In this document: piece after piece, positions 22,019 to 60,407 of the stretch
Layout: each line of letters starts with the position of its first letter
Position numbering within the stretch: position 1 is the stretch's first letter
Source of the DNA: Candidatus Omnitrophota bacterium
Lineage (GTDB): Bacteria; Omnitrophota; Gorgyraeia; Zapsychrales; JAHFFX01
Direction: 5' to 3'
Assembly (NCBI GenBank): GCA_023247725.1
Contig: JAHFFW010000009.1
Coordinates: 14,424-78,423 of the forward strand
Length of the DNA stretch: 64,000 bases
Program-made: the position numbers and the translations under genes
The notes under the pieces: model-generated
Told to the model about the DNA's origin: nothing
The model's database searches: none
The model's input: the letters and a program-made list of their open reading frames with translations, nothing else

Positions 22019-22346
22019 CTTGCCGATATCCTTTCTTTTAAAAAAAATGAAAATCGTCTATTCTTCTTCATGTTCACCGCGTCCATGAAAATTTTTTCCA
22101 AAGGCCTCTGCCAAAAATTTGGCCAGGAGCAAAAAAATGATCGCGTTGATCAACATCCGGAACGCCTTGATTTTTCTTATTGAAGATTGAAATCTGCTGA
22201 TCGAAATTGGACAAAATTTTATGACGAAGGACTTTTATAACTATTCATTGGAATTATAAAGGCTGGCCATTGAGTGTCAACGATATTTTGGGAAATTTGT
22301 GATTGTGGAAGTGCAGCCAGAGGATTTTCAAGAAAAGACAAACGCG

Positions 22347-22395
22347 CGGGGGCCATCCCGACGGAAAAACGTCGGGATGGCCCCCGCGCAACAAT
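22347..22395 (-). terminator. Rho-independent terminator for the OmpA/LysM gene
   Basis: Perfect 20-bp inverted repeat gcgcgggggccatcccgacg-gaaaaa-cgtcgggatggcccccgcgc. On the minus strand it is followed by GUUUGUCUUUUCUU. Confidence 0.55.
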
Positions 22396-27550: not shown

Positions 27551-27639
27551 GGGATTGTCCTTTTCGCAGATTTTTTAAGGTCGCTATGTGGGATTAGGAT
27601 ATCATTAAATGCCCTATCGCGGAAGAAACTTTGAAAGAG

Positions 27640-27680
27640 AAAAAGCGAGGGCCGCCCCGCCAAAGGCGAGGCGGCCCGTC
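27640..27680 (-). terminator. Rho-independent terminator after yceI-like gene
   Basis: Stem gggccgcc / ggcggccc. On the minus strand it is followed by CGCUUUUUCUCU. Confidence 0.4.
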
Positions 27681-27710
27681 CCTTTTCGCCGTCGCTTAAT
27701 ATTTCGAAAA

Positions 27711-48171: not shown

Positions 48172-48243
48172 CCGGTGCCCCAGCGACCCGGGATCCCGGT
48201 GACCCAGTCGATTCTCTGGGACGCTGGATCTCTGGGGCACCGG
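48172..48243. repeat. Palindromic element with 12-bp perfect arms (ccggtgccccag / ctggggcaccgg) and internal GTGACC-type motifs
   Basis: It lies between the xerC/D stop and the waaA start. It contains cccgggatcccggtgaccc. Confidence 0.35.
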
Positions 48244-49127: not shown

Positions 49128-49130
49128 TGT

Positions 49131-49193
49131 CCGTGACTCGTGACCGGTGGCCTGTGACTCGACGGGTCACGAGTCACGGATCACGGGTCACAA
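49131..49193. repeat. GTGAC/GTCAC heptad-repeat palindromic element (15-bp perfect arms) abutting the xerC/D start codon
   Basis: ccgtgactcgtgacc-ggtggcctgtgactcgac-gggtcacgagtcacgg-atcacgggtcacaa. There are 4 x GTGACNN heptads, then 4 x GTCACNN. It ends 3 nt before the xer ATG. Confidence 0.5.
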
Positions 49194-53018: not shown

Positions 53019-54053
53019 TTAAAAGAATCCATAGCCGCGAAGGATAAAATCAATAATCTGGTTACCCCAAAACAGACTCACCAAGGCCCCCAAAGCCAAA
53101 AATGGTCCGTAGGCGATGACACTTTCTTTCGTGCGGATTTTTACCACGATACCCGCCAGTGCCCCAAATAACGGCGCGATAAAAAAGGCTAAGATCGTCA
53201 ATTTCCATCCCAAAAATGCCCCCACCATCGCCAGCATTTTTACATCCCCGCCACCCATCGATTCCTTCCGAAAGATGAGATCACCCACCATCCCCATCGC
53301 GTAGATGCTACTGCCACCCGCCAAAAATCCAATTAAGGAAGCTTCCAACGAAAGTGTATGCGGCAGGATGTTCTCCCAGCCCGGTTTCTCCAGCAGCGGC
53401 CATAACGAATGAATAAGAAAGACCAATCCGCAAGCAATGAGAATCATGGTATAAAACATGCCGTCGGATTCTGCAGTATCCGGCTCGATCGAAGTCGTTT
53501 CCTGATCTTTTTGAAGAAAATGCCCCACCAACAATAACACAAAACAAAAAGCAACCAGAATCACCATGAACCAACGCCCTGCCAAGAGAGTCATATCGGA
53601 TGTGTCGTGCATCTGGGGAACCAAAAGGCTCAAAGCCAGGCCGGCCACAAGCCCTCCTACGGAAATCTCATCGGGAATGATTCGGTGTTCCAGATCTACA
53701 AAGGTGGCCACGATGAATCCACTCAGCAAAAAAAGATACGGAACAAGAATCAGCTGGAGCCCAAAGTGTTCATAAAACAATACAAATGCCAAGGCCGTCA
53801 GCAGTTCCACCAGAAAATAACGAAAAGAAATTTTTTTGCGGCAAAAACGGCAATGCGCCCTCAAAACTAAAAAACTGATCAAAGGGATATTATCATACCA
53901 GGGAATGGGGGTCGCACAATGAATACAGCGAGAGGCCGGCGCGACGATGGATTGCATTTTTGGCAGACGGACAATACACACATTGAGAAAGCTGCCGACA
54001 ATCGCTCCTAAAATAAAAAATGCGAACAGAAAAAATCCGTCCAGATTCGTCAT
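53019..54053 (-). CDS. pilD: Prepilin peptidase / N-methyltransferase (A24 family)
   Basis: N-terminal Cys cluster (CIHCATPIPWYDNIPLISF..HCRFC) and a DiS_P_DiS/peptidase A24 membrane core. Confidence 0.75.
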   Translation of the reverse strand: MTNLDGFFLFAFFILGAIVGSFLNVCIVRLPKMQSIVAPASRCIHCATPIPWYDNIPLISFLVLRAHCRFCRKKISFRYFLVELLTALAFVLFYEHFGLQLILVPYLFLLSGFIVATFVDLEHRIIPDEISVGGLVAGLALSLLVPQMHDTSDMTLLAGRWFMVILVAFCFVLLLVGHFLQKDQETTSIEPDTAESDGMFYTMILIACGLVFLIHSLWPLLEKPGWENILPHTLSLEASLIGFLAGGSSIYAMGMVGDLIFRKESMGGGDVKMLAMVGAFLGWKLTILAFFIAPLFGALAGIVVKIRTKESVIAYGPFLALGALVSLFWGNQIIDFILRGYGFF

Positions 54054-54936: not shown

Positions 54937-56457
54937 TTATGGCTGGGAAAGCACTTTATTGATGGCGTTTAAGTAGGCCTTGGCCGAGGCTTCCAGAATA
55001 TCCGTGCTGGCGCCGTGGGCGATCACTTTTTTCCCGCCGATCTTGACCTTGGCGGTGACTTCTCCAATCGCGTCCTTTCCCCGGGTCACCGATTGAATGG
55101 AATATTCCAAAAGCTCGCCTTTCATCTGGGTCACCGCATCGATCGCCTTGTAGAGGGCATCCACCGGCCCGTCCCCGGTCGAACGGGTTTTGTAAATTTT
55201 TCCTTTGGATTTGAGTGACAGCTCGACCCTGGGTTTTAGATTCGTGCCGCTGGTCGTCTTCAAACTGACGAGACTCCAGGTGTCTTTGACGGTTTTCACC
55301 TCATCTTCCGCAATCGTCAACAAATCCTCGTCGAATATCTGTTTTTTCTTGTCGGCCAGACGCTTGAATATCTCGAAGGCCTTATCCAATTGCGCGGGTT
55401 TTAATTCCACGCCCAGATGTTTTAAACGCTCCAGGAAGGCGTGCCGTCCCGAATGTTTCCCCAAGACCAATCCGGTCCCCACAAATCCCACATCTTCGGG
55501 ACGCATGATTTCATAGGTGGAACGCTCTTTCAACATTCCGTCTTGATGAATGCCGGCCTCGTGCCGAAACGCATTGGCGCCCACAATCGCTTTATTCGGC
55601 GGGACGACAAAACCCGTGGCCTTGCTGACCAGACGCGAGACGCGGCAGATTTCTTTCGTCTGAATGCCGGTGCAGCATCCGTAATAATCCCGGCGGGTCG
55701 CAAGGGCCATCACGATTTCTTCCATCGAGGCGTTGCCGGCGCGTTCGCCAATGCCATTGATCGTGCATTCAACCTGCCGGGCCCCATTTTTAATAGCGGC
55801 CAGGCTGTTGGCGACCCCCATCCCCAAATCGTCATGGCAATGGACGGAAATGATCGCTTGATGAATATTGGGCACATGCTCTTTAATATCCGCAATCAAT
55901 TGCCCATAAAGAGCCGGAATTGTGTACCCGACGGTATCGGGAATATTGACCGTCCTTGCTCCGGCCTTAATGACCGCTTCAAGGATGCGATAAAGAAAAT
56001 TCTTATCGGAGCGGGTGGCATCCTCGGGAGAGAACTCGATATCATCCATTTTATCTCTGGCATATTTGACCGCATCGACGGCCATCTGTAAAATCTGCTC
56101 GGGAGTTTTTTTGAATTTATGCTCAAGATGGATCTTGGAGGTGGCCAAAAAAACATGGATGCGGCCATGCCTGGCCGTTTTGACGGCCTCGGCGGCTGCG
56201 TCAATATCCTGTTTGATGGACCGGGCCAGTCCGCAGACAATGGAATTCCTGATCGTCTTGGCCACTTTTCTAACGGATTGGAAATCTCCCGGAGAGCTGA
56301 CGGGAAATCCTGCCTCAATCACATCGACCCCCAGGCGCTCGAGGGCTAAAGCGATCTCCAGCTTTTCTTTTTCATTCATGCTGGCGCCGGGCGCCTGCTC
56401 GCCGTCGCGCAGGGTGGTGTCGAAAATCAAGACTCTTTGTCCTGGATCTGACATCAT
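54937..56457 (-). CDS. leuA: 2-isopropylmalate synthase
   Basis: [14 protein letters not shown]; HxH TIM-barrel metal site; C-terminal LeuA dimerisation domain. Confidence 0.85.
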
Positions 56458-56463
56458 TCTTCT

Positions 56464-56655
56464 TTAAAATCCTTTCTCTTTCAATCTCTGCCATATCTTT
56501 TTATTTTTGGGTGGCATCAGGCGATCAAGAAAATGATTCATGTTCTCCAGCCATTGCAATTTTTGCCGTAAAGGCAAAGCGATATAGCTTTTTAAATCTT
56601 CTGTACAATATCCTTCATTTTTATTTTTCTTTCTGATCACGACCCAACTCCTCAA
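56464..56655 (-). CDS. Small hypothetical ORF (63 aa) upstream of leuA
   Basis: Track ORF with no recognisable features. It overlaps the end of the nucleotidyltransferase gene by 35 nt. Confidence 0.2.
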   Translation of the reverse strand: MRSWVVIRKKNKNEGYCTEDLKSYIALPLRQKLQWLENMNHFLDRLMPPKNKKIWQRLKEKGF

Positions 56656-57124
56656 TTTGCTTTAATCCGATGATGTCCAGTTGATCTCTCGCTCGGCCAG
56701 CGCTTTTTTTCATTTTAATCAAATTGGCAATGTCCATGACTGGCACCACTAGGCCTCGGTCTCGAAAAATCTTTCTTCGCCTGAAAGCCTTCGAGAAATT
56801 AATCGGATGATCAATGACCACATCCAAATATTTGCTTTGAAAACCTGGATCATAAAACGTAAACGCCTTCATATTTTTGTCTTTGATCCAAACTCTCCTT
56901 AACGCGGCAATCGCAAAATCCTCGATCTTCACCGGAATTCTTGGCACTAATCTTAATCTCTTAACGGCCTTGACAAAATTTCTGATGTTTCCATCTTGCA
57001 AAAGGAGGATGATATCCAAATCCGCGGTTAAACGATAGAAACCATGCAAGTTAACAGCCAACCCTCCTACGACTAAATATTTTACCTTGCGGCGATTGAG
57101 TTCCTGTAGAATTTCCTCAAACAT
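56621..57124 (-). CDS. Pol-beta-superfamily nucleotidyltransferase (Lnu/ANT(2'')-like fold), function unknown
   Basis: KYLVVGGLAVNLHGFYRLTADLDIIL matches the hGG.A...G..R.T.DlDi minimal-NTase motif. The start was moved to MFEEILQ (57124), 4 nt after the methyltransferase stop. Confidence 0.5.
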   Translation of the reverse strand: MFEEILQELNRRKVKYLVVGGLAVNLHGFYRLTADLDIILLLQDGNIRNFVKAVKRLRLVPRIPVKIEDFAIAALRRVWIKDKNMKAFTFYDPGFQSKYLDVVIDHPINFSKAFRRRKIFRDRGLVVPVMDIANLIKMKKSAGRARDQLDIIGLKQIEELGRDQKEK

Positions 57125-57746
57125 GGAATTGATCCTGGAAATCCCGAATTCTTTCTCGAACCAGCCCAACCGCCAGCCTTGGGGCTCCGATGCCGGTGGC
57201 ATTGGCATGGGAATAAATTTCGATGCGATCGATATCCTCGTCGATAACATGGCGCTTCTTCTCCCCCACCAGCCGGAGGTTGAGGCCTTTATGCTCCAAC
57301 AACATTGTTTCAATGCCGAAACTTGCAACAAATCGTTTCAAACTTTCTTCCGAGTACCCCCATTTGTGATTGCCAAAATGACCGATATAAACTGTCGAAC
57401 GCCACATATTCTCACCGAATATGAAATCCACAAAGTTATCAAATCCAAACTTAAAGTAGCGAAAAAGTATCTTCTTGAAATTAGGAACCTGCAAGGTGAT
57501 CGTTCCGCCAATCTTCAACACCCTGGCCCACTGGGCAAAAACAACATACCGCACGTACTTATCGAAGTGCTCCAACAAATCCTCGGCGAGGATGGCATCC
57601 ACGCTCTGATCTTCGTATGGTAAGGGCTGCGTCAGATCGAGAACAAGGTCCGGCTGGCAACGGGCGACCGAATCGATGTTCACCCAGCCGGGCAATTTGT
57701 TGGTCCCGCAGCCGAGGTGGAGCTTGAGGGGTTGTTCGTTAGACAT
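57117..57746 (-). CDS. Class I SAM-dependent methyltransferase
   Basis: LHLGCGTNKLPGWVNID motif I, LAEDLLEH, LKIGG. The start was moved to MSNEQPL because the track's N-terminal extension runs through a structured repeat region. Confidence 0.65.
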   Translation of the reverse strand: MSNEQPLKLHLGCGTNKLPGWVNIDSVARCQPDLVLDLTQPLPYEDQSVDAILAEDLLEHFDKYVRYVVFAQWARVLKIGGTITLQVPNFKKILFRYFKFGFDNFVDFIFGENMWRSTVYIGHFGNHKWGYSEESLKRFVASFGIETMLLEHKGLNLRLVGEKKRHVIDEDIDRIEIYSHANATGIGAPRLAVGLVRERIRDFQDQFHV

Positions 57747-57937
57747 ACTTAGTGTACGTAGGACGATGGACGTCCGTTCACCCGCCTTCGGCGGGTTCAC
57801 TTGGACGTGGGACGTTCGCTCGTCCCCGCCATTGTGGCGGGGGCTCGCTCGGACGAAGGACGTAAAATTGAATGTGGCACCATTCAAAGGCCACGTCCCA
57901 CGTCCAACGAATCTCACTGGCGCTACCTCTGGCCATT
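57747..57937. repeat. Highly structured GC-rich intergenic element with nested inverted repeats
   Basis: ttggacgtgggacgt ... acgtcccacgtccaa (15-bp arms about 80 bp apart). Hairpins acccgcc-ttcg-ggcgggt, ccccgcc-attgt-ggcgggg and ttgaatg..cattcaa. Repeated GGACG(T/A) units. Confidence 0.45.
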
Positions 57938-58366
57938 CTATGAATCCTGATCCTGTAAGAAGCGCATAATCTCCTGCGAGAACTGTTGAAAATCGGCGAG
58001 GTCATTTTGTAGGTGTTTATAAACCAATTCCCAATTAATCCGACTGTATTCATGGACGATAAGATTTCTGAATTTAACGGCCTGTGAAAATCTTTCGGCA
58101 ATGGATAAGGAAATAATATTATGCTTGGCGAGCCCGGCGAAGATATCTTTCCCTTCCTGTGGTTTGGGAAGTTTCTTTTCACTGATAATCAATTCTCCGA
58201 TATCCATCGTGCTCTCCACCGCGACTTGAAAATATCTCAATATAGCTCCTTGAACCGTATGATCTTTGAGGATCTCTGGCAGTGAGAGTTTTTGATAGCC
58301 TTGCAAATACCTCGAGCACTCTTGCAAATGCTCCATCTTGGTCACTATGGAAATTTTAGCAATCAT
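57938..58366 (-). CDS. hepT: HepT-like HEPN toxin (DUF86)
   Basis: RNLIVHEY matches the Rx4HxY HEPN motif. 142 aa. ATGA overlap with the upstream MntA gene. Confidence 0.7.
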   Translation of the reverse strand: MIAKISIVTKMEHLQECSRYLQGYQKLSLPEILKDHTVQGAILRYFQVAVESTMDIGELIISEKKLPKPQEGKDIFAGLAKHNIISLSIAERFSQAVKFRNLIVHEYSRINWELVYKHLQNDLADFQQFSQEIMRFLQDQDS

Positions 58367-58812
58367 AAGATCCCCTCCCTGGCAATCCTGGCAATGGCAA
58401 GGTCGGCGTGGCGGCCGAAATAATACTGCTCATCATAAAACTGACTCATCACTCTCGCCTCAAAATGGATCCTCGTCCATTCGTTCTGACAAACCAGGAT
58501 TTCCCCTTCTCGGATCACATTGAACTTTAAAAATAATGGCGCATCATTGAGCACCACCAGATCCACAAAAGGAGAGCTGCGCCAGGGCCCTTGCAGTTGC
58601 CCGATCAAATCCAATCGCTTTTGCAAGCGTTGATCATTATCCAACGAGGGTGCCAGATACACCGCCAGATCCATATCGCTTCGTTGACTAACTTCCCGGC
58701 GTGCCACCGAACCGAACACATAGGCCACGATCACGGTGGGATCTTTCGAAAAGCCCTGCTTCGCCTTTTCTTTCAGTTGCTCTAGCCTTTGCTCGTAATC
58801 GTCCTCAGACAT
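58363..58812 (-). CDS. mntA: MntA-like nucleotidyltransferase antitoxin
   Basis: FGSVARREVSQRSDMDLAV matches the GSxAR...SDxDL minimal NTase motif. It is paired with HepT. Confidence 0.7.
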   Translation of the reverse strand: MSEDDYEQRLEQLKEKAKQGFSKDPTVIVAYVFGSVARREVSQRSDMDLAVYLAPSLDNDQRLQKRLDLIGQLQGPWRSSPFVDLVVLNDAPLFLKFNVIREGEILVCQNEWTRIHFEARVMSQFYDEQYYFGRHADLAIARIAREGIL

Positions 58813-59392
58813 GAGAGGAAGCCCTTAAAGGAATTTGTTTGGATTTCTTAAACACTCTCACCCTATCAGCACATCCCTTGGAAAGCTGAGGTTCTGGGCC
58901 AAGTCCTTCGCTAAAGCGGCGCAACTCATAAAACAATCGGATCAAGGGATGCTCATCTTCTTTTAGTTTAATCCTAACGAGGCGACGTTTTCCTAACCGG
59001 CGATCAATCATTCCTAAGGCTCGGATCAATATTTTTTCAGAAGCCATCGCTTCATCAATGGAATACGACAAATAGTCTTGTAAAATGCGTTGCGAATTCT
59101 CATGGCCACTCATGGCTAATTTATCCATTCTTCGACCCGCCTCGAGATATCGATTCTTTTTTTCTACGGTTTGATCCATTTTTACTTGCTGGCATACTGC
59201 ATTCCAGAAGATTTCGGCTTCATGACTATTGGACCGGAAAACGATAAGGCGGTCCACAAGAATTCTCATCTCACCTAAAGCTATATGCGGGGTCTTCCTC
59301 GTCCGATATAAAACCACATGTAATGCAATCCTTTTTCTCAAGGGCTCGCAAAAGTTGCTTTCAATTTTCTTTTTTAATTGGCTCCAGTACAT
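58805..59392 (-). CDS. Hypothetical protein (195 aa), first gene of the island
   Basis: No recognisable family. It overlaps the mntA start by 8 nt. Confidence 0.4.
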   Translation of the reverse strand: MYWSQLKKKIESNFCEPLRKRIALHVVLYRTRKTPHIALGEMRILVDRLIVFRSNSHEAEIFWNAVCQQVKMDQTVEKKNRYLEAGRRMDKLAMSGHENSQRILQDYLSYSIDEAMASEKILIRALGMIDRRLGKRRLVRIKLKEDEHPLIRLFYELRRFSEGLGPEPQLSKGCADRVRVFKKSKQIPLRASSHV

Positions 59393-59414
59393 CCCATTTC
59401 CTAGGGTTTCACAA

Positions 59415-60407
59415 TCACTTCCGCATCCACGGCATCATGTCGCGCAATTTCCGTCCCACCTGCTCCACCGGATGATTCTCGTCGCGCTGTCGGTACTCGT
59501 TGAACTTTGGGCGGCCTTTTCTATTTTCCCGGATCCATTCGCGCGCGAATTTGCCCGATTGAACTTCTTTGAGAATCTTGCGCATTTCTTTGCGAGTGCG
59601 TTCACCGATGACGCGCGGGCCCCGGGAGTAATCGCCGTACTCGGCGGTGTCCGACACCCGTTTGCGCATTCCGGTCAATCCGCCTTCGTAAATCAAATCC
59701 ACAATAAGTTTGAGTTCATGACAGCATTCAAAATAAGCGATTTCCGGTTGATAGCCAGCCTCGACGAGGGTTTCGAAACCGGCCTTGATCAATTCACTCG
59801 TTCCCCCGCAAAGAACCGTTTGTTCCCCAAATAAATCCGTTTCGGTTTCTTCTTTAAAGGTGGTCTCGATGACGCCCGCCCGCGTGCCGCCGATGCCTTT
59901 GGCATACGCCAGCGCGATTTGCAAAGCCTGGCCCGTCGCATCCTGATGAATCGCCACCAAACAGGGAACGCCTTTTCCTTCCTCATATTGCCGGCGCACC
60001 AGTGAACCCGGTCCTTTGGGCGCAATCATGAACACATCCAGATCACTGGCCGGGATGATTTGCCGGAAATGAATATTGAATCCATGGGAAAAAAGCAGGG
60101 CCTTGCCTTTTTTCATGTGTTTCTTGATGGACTTTTTATAAAGGTCGCCTTGAAGATGATCCTGCACTAAAAGTTGGATAATCTCGGCACGATTGGCCGC
60201 TTCCCCGGCCTCGACGGGCTCAAATCCATCTTGTCTGGCTTGCTCATAATTGGGCCCACCCGCACGCTGGCCGATCACGACCTTTAAACCGCTGTCGCGC
60301 AAATTGAGCGCCTGCCCTCGTCCCTGAATGCCATAACCGATGATGGCGATCGTCTTGTCTTTGATCAAATCCAGATCTGCGTCTTTGTCGTAATAGATTT
60401 TCGGCAT
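59415..60407 (-). CDS. ilvC: Ketol-acid reductoisomerase
   Basis: [21 protein letters not shown]. 330-aa class I KARI. Confidence 0.9.

Follow-up and report, generated by a model that had tools for sequence, protein, structure and literature searches.

Which genes of the interval between ilvC and leuA are native to an Omnitrophota genome, and which were acquired? The question is raised by a 64-kb stretch of DNA (hereafter the window), in which positions 56464-59392, between ilvC (ketol-acid reductoisomerase) and leuA (2-isopropylmalate synthase), hold six open reading frames (ORFs) and a structured spacer. A sequence-only reading had grouped these ORFs as one accessory island of about 2.9 kb, containing a HepT/MntA toxin-antitoxin (TA) pair, a class I S-adenosylmethionine (SAM)-dependent methyltransferase (MTase), a second minimal nucleotidyltransferase (NTase), a hypothetical protein and a tiny ORF. 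Our analyses point to a different arrangement: the interval is probably a mosaic, in which two separate foreign cassettes occupy adjacent junctions around a native MTase, cassette A consisting of an SF0329-family gene with mntA and hepT, and cassette B, a TA-type module, of a DUF6036 NTase and an overlapping small ORF. TA cassettes wedged among housekeeping genes are ordinary, and modest novelty lies here in the conserved MTase and in the DUF6036-small ORF module, which is uncharacterised. The main value is thus corrective, as recognizing a native MTase with two unrelated TA-type cassettes beside it blocks a false annotation as a defence or resistance locus.

Conservation of the ilvC-MTase-leuA array

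Scanning one genome per species for LeuA, we obtained several Omnitrophota at ~59% LeuA identity and three closer relatives at 70-77%, and mapped the window proteins onto the relatives' loci by tblastn (comparison genomes and loci carry L numbers). As the sequence-only reading had supposed, ilvC and leuA lie near each other throughout the lineage: the two are directly adjacent in the closest genomes (L001, L003) and in L004, L006, L008 and L010, which are more distant Omnitrophota-type loci, three of them labelled Omnitrophota, and in L002 a single gene separates them, an MTase homologue at 63% identity, its stop overlapping the start of leuA. Scanning metagenomes with the MTase family alignment added 80 loci, 46 of them with an MTase at ≥61% identity; among these 46, ilvC lies upstream of the MTase in 34 of the 35 loci with sufficient upstream sequence (at a gap of ≤175 nt in 29 of the 34), and leuA starts ≤186 nt past the MTase in 32 of the 33 with sufficient downstream sequence. 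Long contigs show the gene order pfkA-(fba)-ilvC-(cargo)-MTase-leuA-aroE-pilD, and the backbone is a conserved, co-oriented Omnitrophota array, DUF4139-pfkA-ilvC-MTase-leuA-aroE-pilD-aroK. The SF0329 protein, MntA, HepT, the NTase and the small ORF are absent from the ilvC-leuA interval in most relatives. Variable presence among close relatives, and with it the accessory status proposed for the block, therefore holds for five of the six genes but fails for the MTase, whose position is kept lineage-wide, an outcome that the sequence-only reading itself had named as refuting. Because of this ilvC-MTase-leuA synteny we assign the MTase to the backbone: across a large clade it is native to the ilvC-leuA interval and fixed there, and it is not island cargo.

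These distributions bear directly on the idea of a single 2.9-kb island acquired as a block, in which NTase and MTase would form a defence or antibiotic-modification cassette beside the TA module. The genes are indeed contiguous, co-oriented and tightly packed, down to an 8-nt overlap between the MTase stop and the NTase start, and the mean GC content of the block is below that of the window. The MTase, though, holds its syntenic place in related loci that do not have this NTase and has a native composition, and NTase homologues in other genomes are never adjacent to this MTase and always adjacent to the small ORF, which leaves the single-island explanation with next to no probability. Since the MTase is normally fixed at ilvC-MTase-leuA, its adjacency to the NTase is an accident of insertion, the two do not make a modification cassette, and the partner of the NTase is the tiny ORF.

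The MTase itself is a very conserved, uncharacterised gene, so far found mainly in Omnitrophota and almost always fixed between ilvC and leuA. It matches Methyltransf_11 in part, at 31.2 bits (cutoff 21.2), as do all 26 of 26 family members, and a protein search returned at least 407 homologues, the best 120 at 64-79% identity (E<1e-90); those bearing a source name are labelled Omnitrophota or Omnitrophica. An alignment of 26 sequences has 60 invariant columns. In the Gly-rich motif I, L-H-L-G-C-G at residues 9-14, H10, G12 and G14 never vary and conservation is ≥90% at L9, L11 and C13, and the family as a whole is marked by the motif LHLGCG...AEDLLEHFDKY...GNHKWGY. The family profile found no sequence relative in the PDB. 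According to some gene callers (Logan/ENA) the MTase begins at GTG 57917 and runs through the structured spacer, which makes it 266 amino acids (aa) long; since NCBI and all homologues support 209 aa, we regard the shorter form as correct and the longer one as spurious. A subgroup at 54-60% identity sits in other contexts, in some of them followed by a pfk-like gene.

Base composition and gene layout

Compositionally, the block is AT-rich on average, as had been judged by eye, with a GC content of 0.453 against 0.486 for the window and ~0.52 for the flanking genes, but the signal is patchy. When compared with the 53 other window genes (0.488 ± 0.025), four genes have values lower than any of the 53, namely the SF0329 gene (0.423), hepT (0.410), the NTase (0.407) and, lowest, the small ORF (0.333), and they form the sole low-GC gene cluster within the 64 kb. 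The MTase (0.492, z +0.15, GC at third codon positions 0.60) and mntA (0.504) show ordinary values, and the spacer of 191 nt is rich in GC (0.592). Four of the five accessory genes are thus compositionally foreign and mntA is typical, and the native GC content of the MTase agrees with its backbone status.

All six ORFs proposed from the sequence were present at the same positions, all on the minus strand, and their family calls were upheld by Pfam and NCBIfam, in which MntA, HepT, leuA and ilvC score at equivalog level (Table 1). In transcription order the locus reads ilvC, SF0329 gene, mntA, hepT, spacer, MTase, DUF6036 NTase, small ORF and leuA, with consecutive junction distances of +22, -8, -4, +191, -8, -20 and +6 nt: the SF0329 gene starts 22 nt past the ilvC stop and runs 8 nt into mntA, mntA runs 4 nt into hepT, the MTase runs 8 nt into the NTase, and the small ORF overlaps the 3' end of the NTase by 20 nt and terminates 6 nt before the leuA ATG. 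Given this tight packing, the cassettes are probably co-transcribed with the housekeeping genes. The stretch is reproduced by three independent assemblies (L081, L082, L083) at 99.99-100% DNA identity, so the arrangement is neither a chimera nor an assembly artefact.

Table 1 Features of the ilvC-leuA interval and its flanks (window positions unless a comparison locus is named).
Feature	Position	Strand	Annotation
ilvC, ketol-acid reductoisomerase	59415..60407	-	TIGR00465, 455 bits; KARI_N and KARI_C; upstream anchor, backbone
Cassette A	57938-59392	-	SF0329 gene, mntA and hepT
SF0329-family protein, 195 aa	58805..59392	-	Cassette A gene 1; PF25753, NF049912
MntA, minimal nucleotidyltransferase, predicted type VII antitoxin, 149 aa	58363..58812	-	Cassette A gene 2; NF047752, Polbeta PF18765
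HepT, predicted HEPN RNase toxin, 142 aa	57938..58366	-	Cassette A gene 3; NF047751, PF01934
GC-rich structured spacer, 191 nt	57747..57937	-	Perfect 15-nt inverted repeat; RNA fold
Class I SAM-dependent methyltransferase (MTase), 209 aa	57117..57746	-	Methyltransf_11; backbone, not cargo
Cassette B	56464-57124	-	NTase and overlapping small ORF
DUF6036 short NTase, 167 aa, MenT1/AbiEii-like, predicted toxin	56621..57124	-	Cassette B gene 1; PF19502
Small ORF, 58 aa, predicted NTase partner/antitoxin	56464..56640	-	Cassette B gene 2; homologous ORFs elsewhere
leuA, 2-isopropylmalate synthase	54937..56457	-	TIGR00973, 741 bits; downstream anchor, backbone
SF0329-family member in comparison locus	L178 4001-4552

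Cassette B, a candidate MenT-like module

Hidden Markov model (HMM) classification places the 167-aa NTase in DUF6036 (28.9 bits, cutoff 23.6). Its homologues number 123, far fewer than those of the MTase, with identity dropping off quickly, and some sources name them 'AbiEii/AbiGii toxin'. Four contexts that are unrelated to one another contain homologues, at 66%, 65%, 46% and 41% identity: one follows moaA and a short MntA/HepT pair (L167, 66%, in the metagenome-assembled genome of L001), one comes after DUF4139, one is placed between EVE and putA, and one is an integrase-proximal region of Leptospiraceae. In all four (L167, L168, L169-171 and L173-177) an ORF of 54-57 aa overlaps the 3' end of the NTase homologue and shares conserved positions with the small ORF of the window at 27-63% identity, which brings the pairing of this NTase with an overlapping 54-58-aa ORF to five contexts, the window included, in at least two phyla. 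Because a homologous overlapping ORF recurs in every other context, we consider the tiny ORF a real gene and the partner of the NTase; its start is more likely GTG 56640 (58 aa), and TTG 56655 would give 63 aa. At L167 (3198-4676), in a genome that is the closest relative without cassettes at ilvC-leuA, the short MntA/HepT pair (102 and 106 aa) stands beside the 66%-identical NTase and its small ORF, so that the same two cassette types are again adjacent at a different locus.

The sequence-only reading had likened this NTase to lincosamide and aminoglycoside nucleotidyltransferases (Lnu/ANT), but its closest solved relative is the MenT1 toxin, and it lies nearer to AbiEii/MenT-type toxins. Searched against the PDB, a family profile built from 51 homologues matches MenT1 (8an4, 8an5, 8rr5) along the whole of its length at E=3.6e-8, compared with E=0.17 for LnuA. 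The AlphaFold2 model (mean predicted local distance difference test score, pLDDT, 92.6) likewise has MenT1 as its top Foldseek hits (8an5 and 8an4, template modelling (TM) score 0.68-0.69, E=4e-6), ahead of LnuA (TM 0.58), TM1012 and ANT(2'')-Ia (TM ~0.50-0.57). Across the 51 homologues G20, G21, R31, T33, D35, D37, K139 and R144 are invariant and D147 and D150 are ≥90% conserved, with G20, G21, D35 and D37 supplying the Pol-beta motifs I and II (GG...DxD) and K139, R144, D147 and D150 the C-terminal motifs III and IV (the catalytic Lys, followed by R..D..D). The residues T39, D41, K137, D149 and D152 have been functionally tested in MenT1 (PMC11375011), and they align to T33, D35, K139, D147 and D150 of the window protein.

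That the NTase is instead a resistance gene of the lincosamide/aminoglycoside type, and not a toxin, would fit its minimal Pol-beta-type fold and similar size, as well as the Foldseek matches to LnuA and ANT(2'')-Ia; 11 of the 51 relatives also touch the Pfam family Aminoglyc_resit, to which the window NTase itself has no hit. MenT1 is, however, the better match by both sequence and structure, the C-terminal K...R..D..D motifs and the phospho-acceptor Thr of MenT/AbiEii are conserved, and an obligatory overlapping small partner suits a TA module, so that we give a resistance role only a very slight chance.

The reference system is MenAT1 of M. tuberculosis (Rv0078A/Rv0078B; PMC10435456, PMC11375011), which pairs a short tRNA nucleotidyltransferase toxin of the DUF1814 superfamily with a 68-aa helical antitoxin (PMC10435456). 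Cassette B resembles it in its short single-domain NTase, in the best sequence and fold match, in the key residues kept and in the very small partner, and it differs in that the NTase is only ~20% identical to MenT1, belongs to Pfam DUF6036 rather than AbiEii/DUF1814, and in that the partner is unrelated to MenA1 in sequence and is encoded downstream, overlapping the NTase. With AbiE (AbiEi/AbiEii, a type IV TA or abortive infection system) the NTase shares its superfamily; unlike AbiE, cassette B has no COG5340/AbiEi-type winged helix-turn-helix antitoxin, its NTase is much shorter, and PADLOC returns no hit. Mechanistically, the NTase would add nucleotides to the 3' acceptor ends of tRNA and so block translation, and its small partner would bind to it and thereby act as antitoxin, possibly through auto-phosphorylation induced at the conserved Thr33.

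Several results count against this assignment. The small ORF, which had no Pfam, NCBIfam, PADLOC, PHROG or PDB match, has no detectable similarity to MenA1, MenA3 or AbiEi, and it lies downstream of the NTase while menA1 is usually upstream; PADLOC does not recognise cassette B; and the window NTase fails the Pfam AbiEii model (PF08843), which 27 of its 51 relatives match at E≤0.01, so that its kinship with AbiEii, as far as sequence goes, is one of superfamily and not of family membership. On balance we lean, by a modest degree, towards cassette B being a TA module of the MenAT1 kind whose partner belongs to a new family and whose gene order is reversed, a reading in which toxicity and the assignment of toxin and partner are what we infer from sequence and structural model. 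The two genes may also have other roles, with the NTase as antitoxin or modifier of a basic 58-aa toxin, or with the small protein as a regulatory subunit of a non-toxic enzyme. The NTase-first order would then match the antitoxin-first order of MntA/HepT, being the reverse of menA1-menT1, and the small ORF is unlike any known antitoxin; against this, among characterised proteins the NTase is closest to a toxin, and all catalytic residues are conserved. Reversed gene order, moreover, occurs in several TA families. We rate these other roles, taken together, as rather unlikely. Whichever way the roles fall, the DUF6036 NTase with its overlapping 54-58-aa partner is a widespread, uncharacterised module of the MenT/AbiEii superfamily and a candidate new TA pairing, and we put at about even the chance that it represents an undescribed MenT-like TA family with a new type of antitoxin.

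Cassette A, a type VII pair with an SF0329 gene

Functionally, toxins of the HepT family are HEPN RNases that cleave mRNA, and MntA neutralises them by oligo-AMPylation of the tyrosine in the RX4HXY motif, using its GSX10DXD centre. Both proteins of cassette A carry the expected motif, MntA as GSVARREVSQRSDMD at residue 34 and HepT as RNLIVHEY at residues 100-107; together the two motifs are the defining signatures of the polyadenylylation-neutralised HepT/MntA system (PMC7641770). MntA scores 81.7 bits against NF047752 (cutoff 60) and also matches Polbeta, and HepT scores 123.4 bits against NF047751 (cutoff 60) and matches PF01934 at E=2e-29. On the strength of these equivalog HMMs and both motifs, the TA assignment made by the sequence-only reading is correct, and by its sequence the pair is a straightforward member of the known type VII family, in which HepT would be neutralised by MntA oligo-AMPylating Tyr107. 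PADLOC gave weak generic MNT hits for MntA only and nothing for the other five proteins.

In comparison with type VII systems such as SO_3166/SO_3165 of Shewanella oneidensis (PMC7641770), the window pair has the same upstream mntA overlapping hepT, both motifs and equivalog scores above the cutoffs. It differs in its 149-aa MntA with a C-terminal extension, in the SF0329 gene translationally coupled upstream, and in being embedded within a housekeeping gene array. The extension is also present in the L090 pair, and it is missing from the 102-aa MntA of L167.

The 195-aa protein, which had been left as hypothetical, belongs by HMM classification to the SF0329 family (PF25753, E=1e-32, 114 bits against a cutoff of 27; NF049912, 115 bits against 60). 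It is divergent, the best of 576 HMMER hits among representatives being 39% identical, and its N-terminal alpha-beta3-alpha part gives only weak matches of the double-stranded RNA-binding domain type; the protein perhaps binds nucleic acid. Homologues occur alone in L172, beside WYL, DUF1828 and DUF6978 genes, alone on two short JGI metagenome contigs, and on plasmids of Priestia (megaterium) among rows of small orphan genes (DUF3885, DUF5412). We considered the protein as a third TA component and found this unsupported, since its homologues stand alone in three other contexts and TA pairs of the L090 type lack it; we treat it as a hitch-hiking accessory gene. One family member lies in a human-gut phage contig. 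A literature search on "SF0329" and "DUF6036" returned no relevant papers, and a PHROGs search of the proteins gave generic MTase hits only.

Probable insertion at the junctions of the array

As we reconstruct it, cassette A would have been inserted at the ilvC/MTase junction and cassette B at the MTase/leuA junction of the conserved array. The ilvC/MTase junction carries other cargo elsewhere: an MntA/HepT pair in L090 (2076-2959), L091 and L093, without SF0329 and 42-49% identical to the pair of the window; a different 180-aa minimal NTase in L112 (1625-2167); crcB with DUF190 in L084 (4271-4997) and L095; an SPFH protein in L103 (787-1653); and a secreted protein in L157. The leuA/aroE junction likewise holds ORF6N-type and other genes in L085 (7326-7892), L094 and L115 (9268-11855), and among the loci compared the MTase/leuA junction is occupied solely in the lineage of the window. 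The junctions of the array are thus recurrent insertion points.

Evolutionarily, many TA-less lineages stand between the window and the L090 clade on a neighbour-joining tree of LeuA, a single-gene tree that is weakly resolved, which implies that a TA pair was captured twice at the ilvC/MTase junction, or was captured once anciently and lost many times. Under the latter view the pair, and possibly other cargo, would be ancestral at the junctions and repeatedly lost in relatives. It draws on the occurrence of the same long-MntA subtype at the exact ilvC/MTase junction in L090, L091 and L093, and on the native-like GC content of mntA. Set against it are the separation on the tree, the low identity of the TA proteins next to flanking genes that are 70-81% identical, the outlying composition of hepT, the SF0329 gene, the NTase and the small ORF, and the unrelated cargo found at the same junction elsewhere. 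Differential loss therefore appears distinctly improbable to us.

Separate insertion of the two cassettes, which we prefer, has its own difficulties. None of the six genes encodes an integrase or recombinase and the window contains no tRNA gene; no flanking direct or inverted repeats mark the ends of an island, the short matches found being at chance level; the NTase-small ORF module has no conserved ends across its five contexts; the native-like composition of mntA makes the compositional argument non-uniform; and the confident AlphaFold2 model of the SF0329 protein (pLDDT 89) has no significant fold match in the PDB or among viral structures (BFVD). With no mobility signatures at hand, we infer the mechanism of insertion, gain as opposed to loss, and any direction of transfer solely from distribution and composition. 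Compared with classical genomic islands and integron cassettes, the locus shares variable presence at a fixed site, atypical GC content and TA cargo, and it departs from them in its two separate insertion points around a native gene and in that integrase, tRNA gene, direct repeats, attC-like sites and conserved ends are all missing.

The structured spacer

The spacer between hepT and the MTase folds as a compound hairpin (z = -5.0 to -6.6), whose outer stem is built from GGACGT/ACGTCC repeats, with 57801-57815 pairing with 57893-57907 as a perfect 15-nt inverted repeat; inside the stem lie three small hairpins, and a second hairpin comes after it. Repeat hairpins of the same type lie directly upstream of the MTase in the TA-less loci L106 (6874-7010), L149 (1123-1195) and L105 (843-930), and other relatives have ordinary intrinsic terminators there. 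Probably, then, this is part of the native ilvC/MTase spacer, serving as a terminator, an insulator or an element like the repetitive extragenic palindromes (REP), and not cargo. Further strong hairpins occur at other intergenic sites of the window (49130-49191, with GTGAC units, 48172-48243, 22344-22389 and 27639-27687), some of them with short periodic repeats, and repeat hairpins may be a genome-wide REP-like or terminator style of this organism.

Rfam gave no match in the whole window (gathering scan) nor in 56300-59500 (E-value scan), and a promoter and terminator scan was uninformative, its counts not exceeding those in shuffled sequence. Judged by eye as a possible attC-like site, the hairpin has its GTTRRRY-like heptamer on the wrong arm, and no integron integrase was found in the window region; we rejected this candidate. 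A more speculative proposal is that the array junctions capture promoterless cassettes independently of any recombinase, the repeat-built hairpins being the target. At least six unrelated cargo sets are found at the single ilvC/MTase junction across lineages, with others at leuA/aroE, neither ends nor mobility genes could be detected for the cassettes, and GACG/CGTC-type repeat hairpins lie at the ilvC/MTase junction both in the window and in cargo-free relatives; even so, we hold this proposal to be highly improbable.

Other observations in the window

An exact-sequence look-up of the leuA product recorded no match. Across positions 1-64000, every long ORF of the non-overlapping gene set lies on the minus strand, an unusually strict co-orientation. 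Downstream of leuA, the prepilin peptidase gene pilD (53019-54053) encodes 344 aa in the window as against 264-267 aa in L084 and L085, and tblastn aligns the protein to most relatives in two segments, which suggests an additional internal segment in the window protein.

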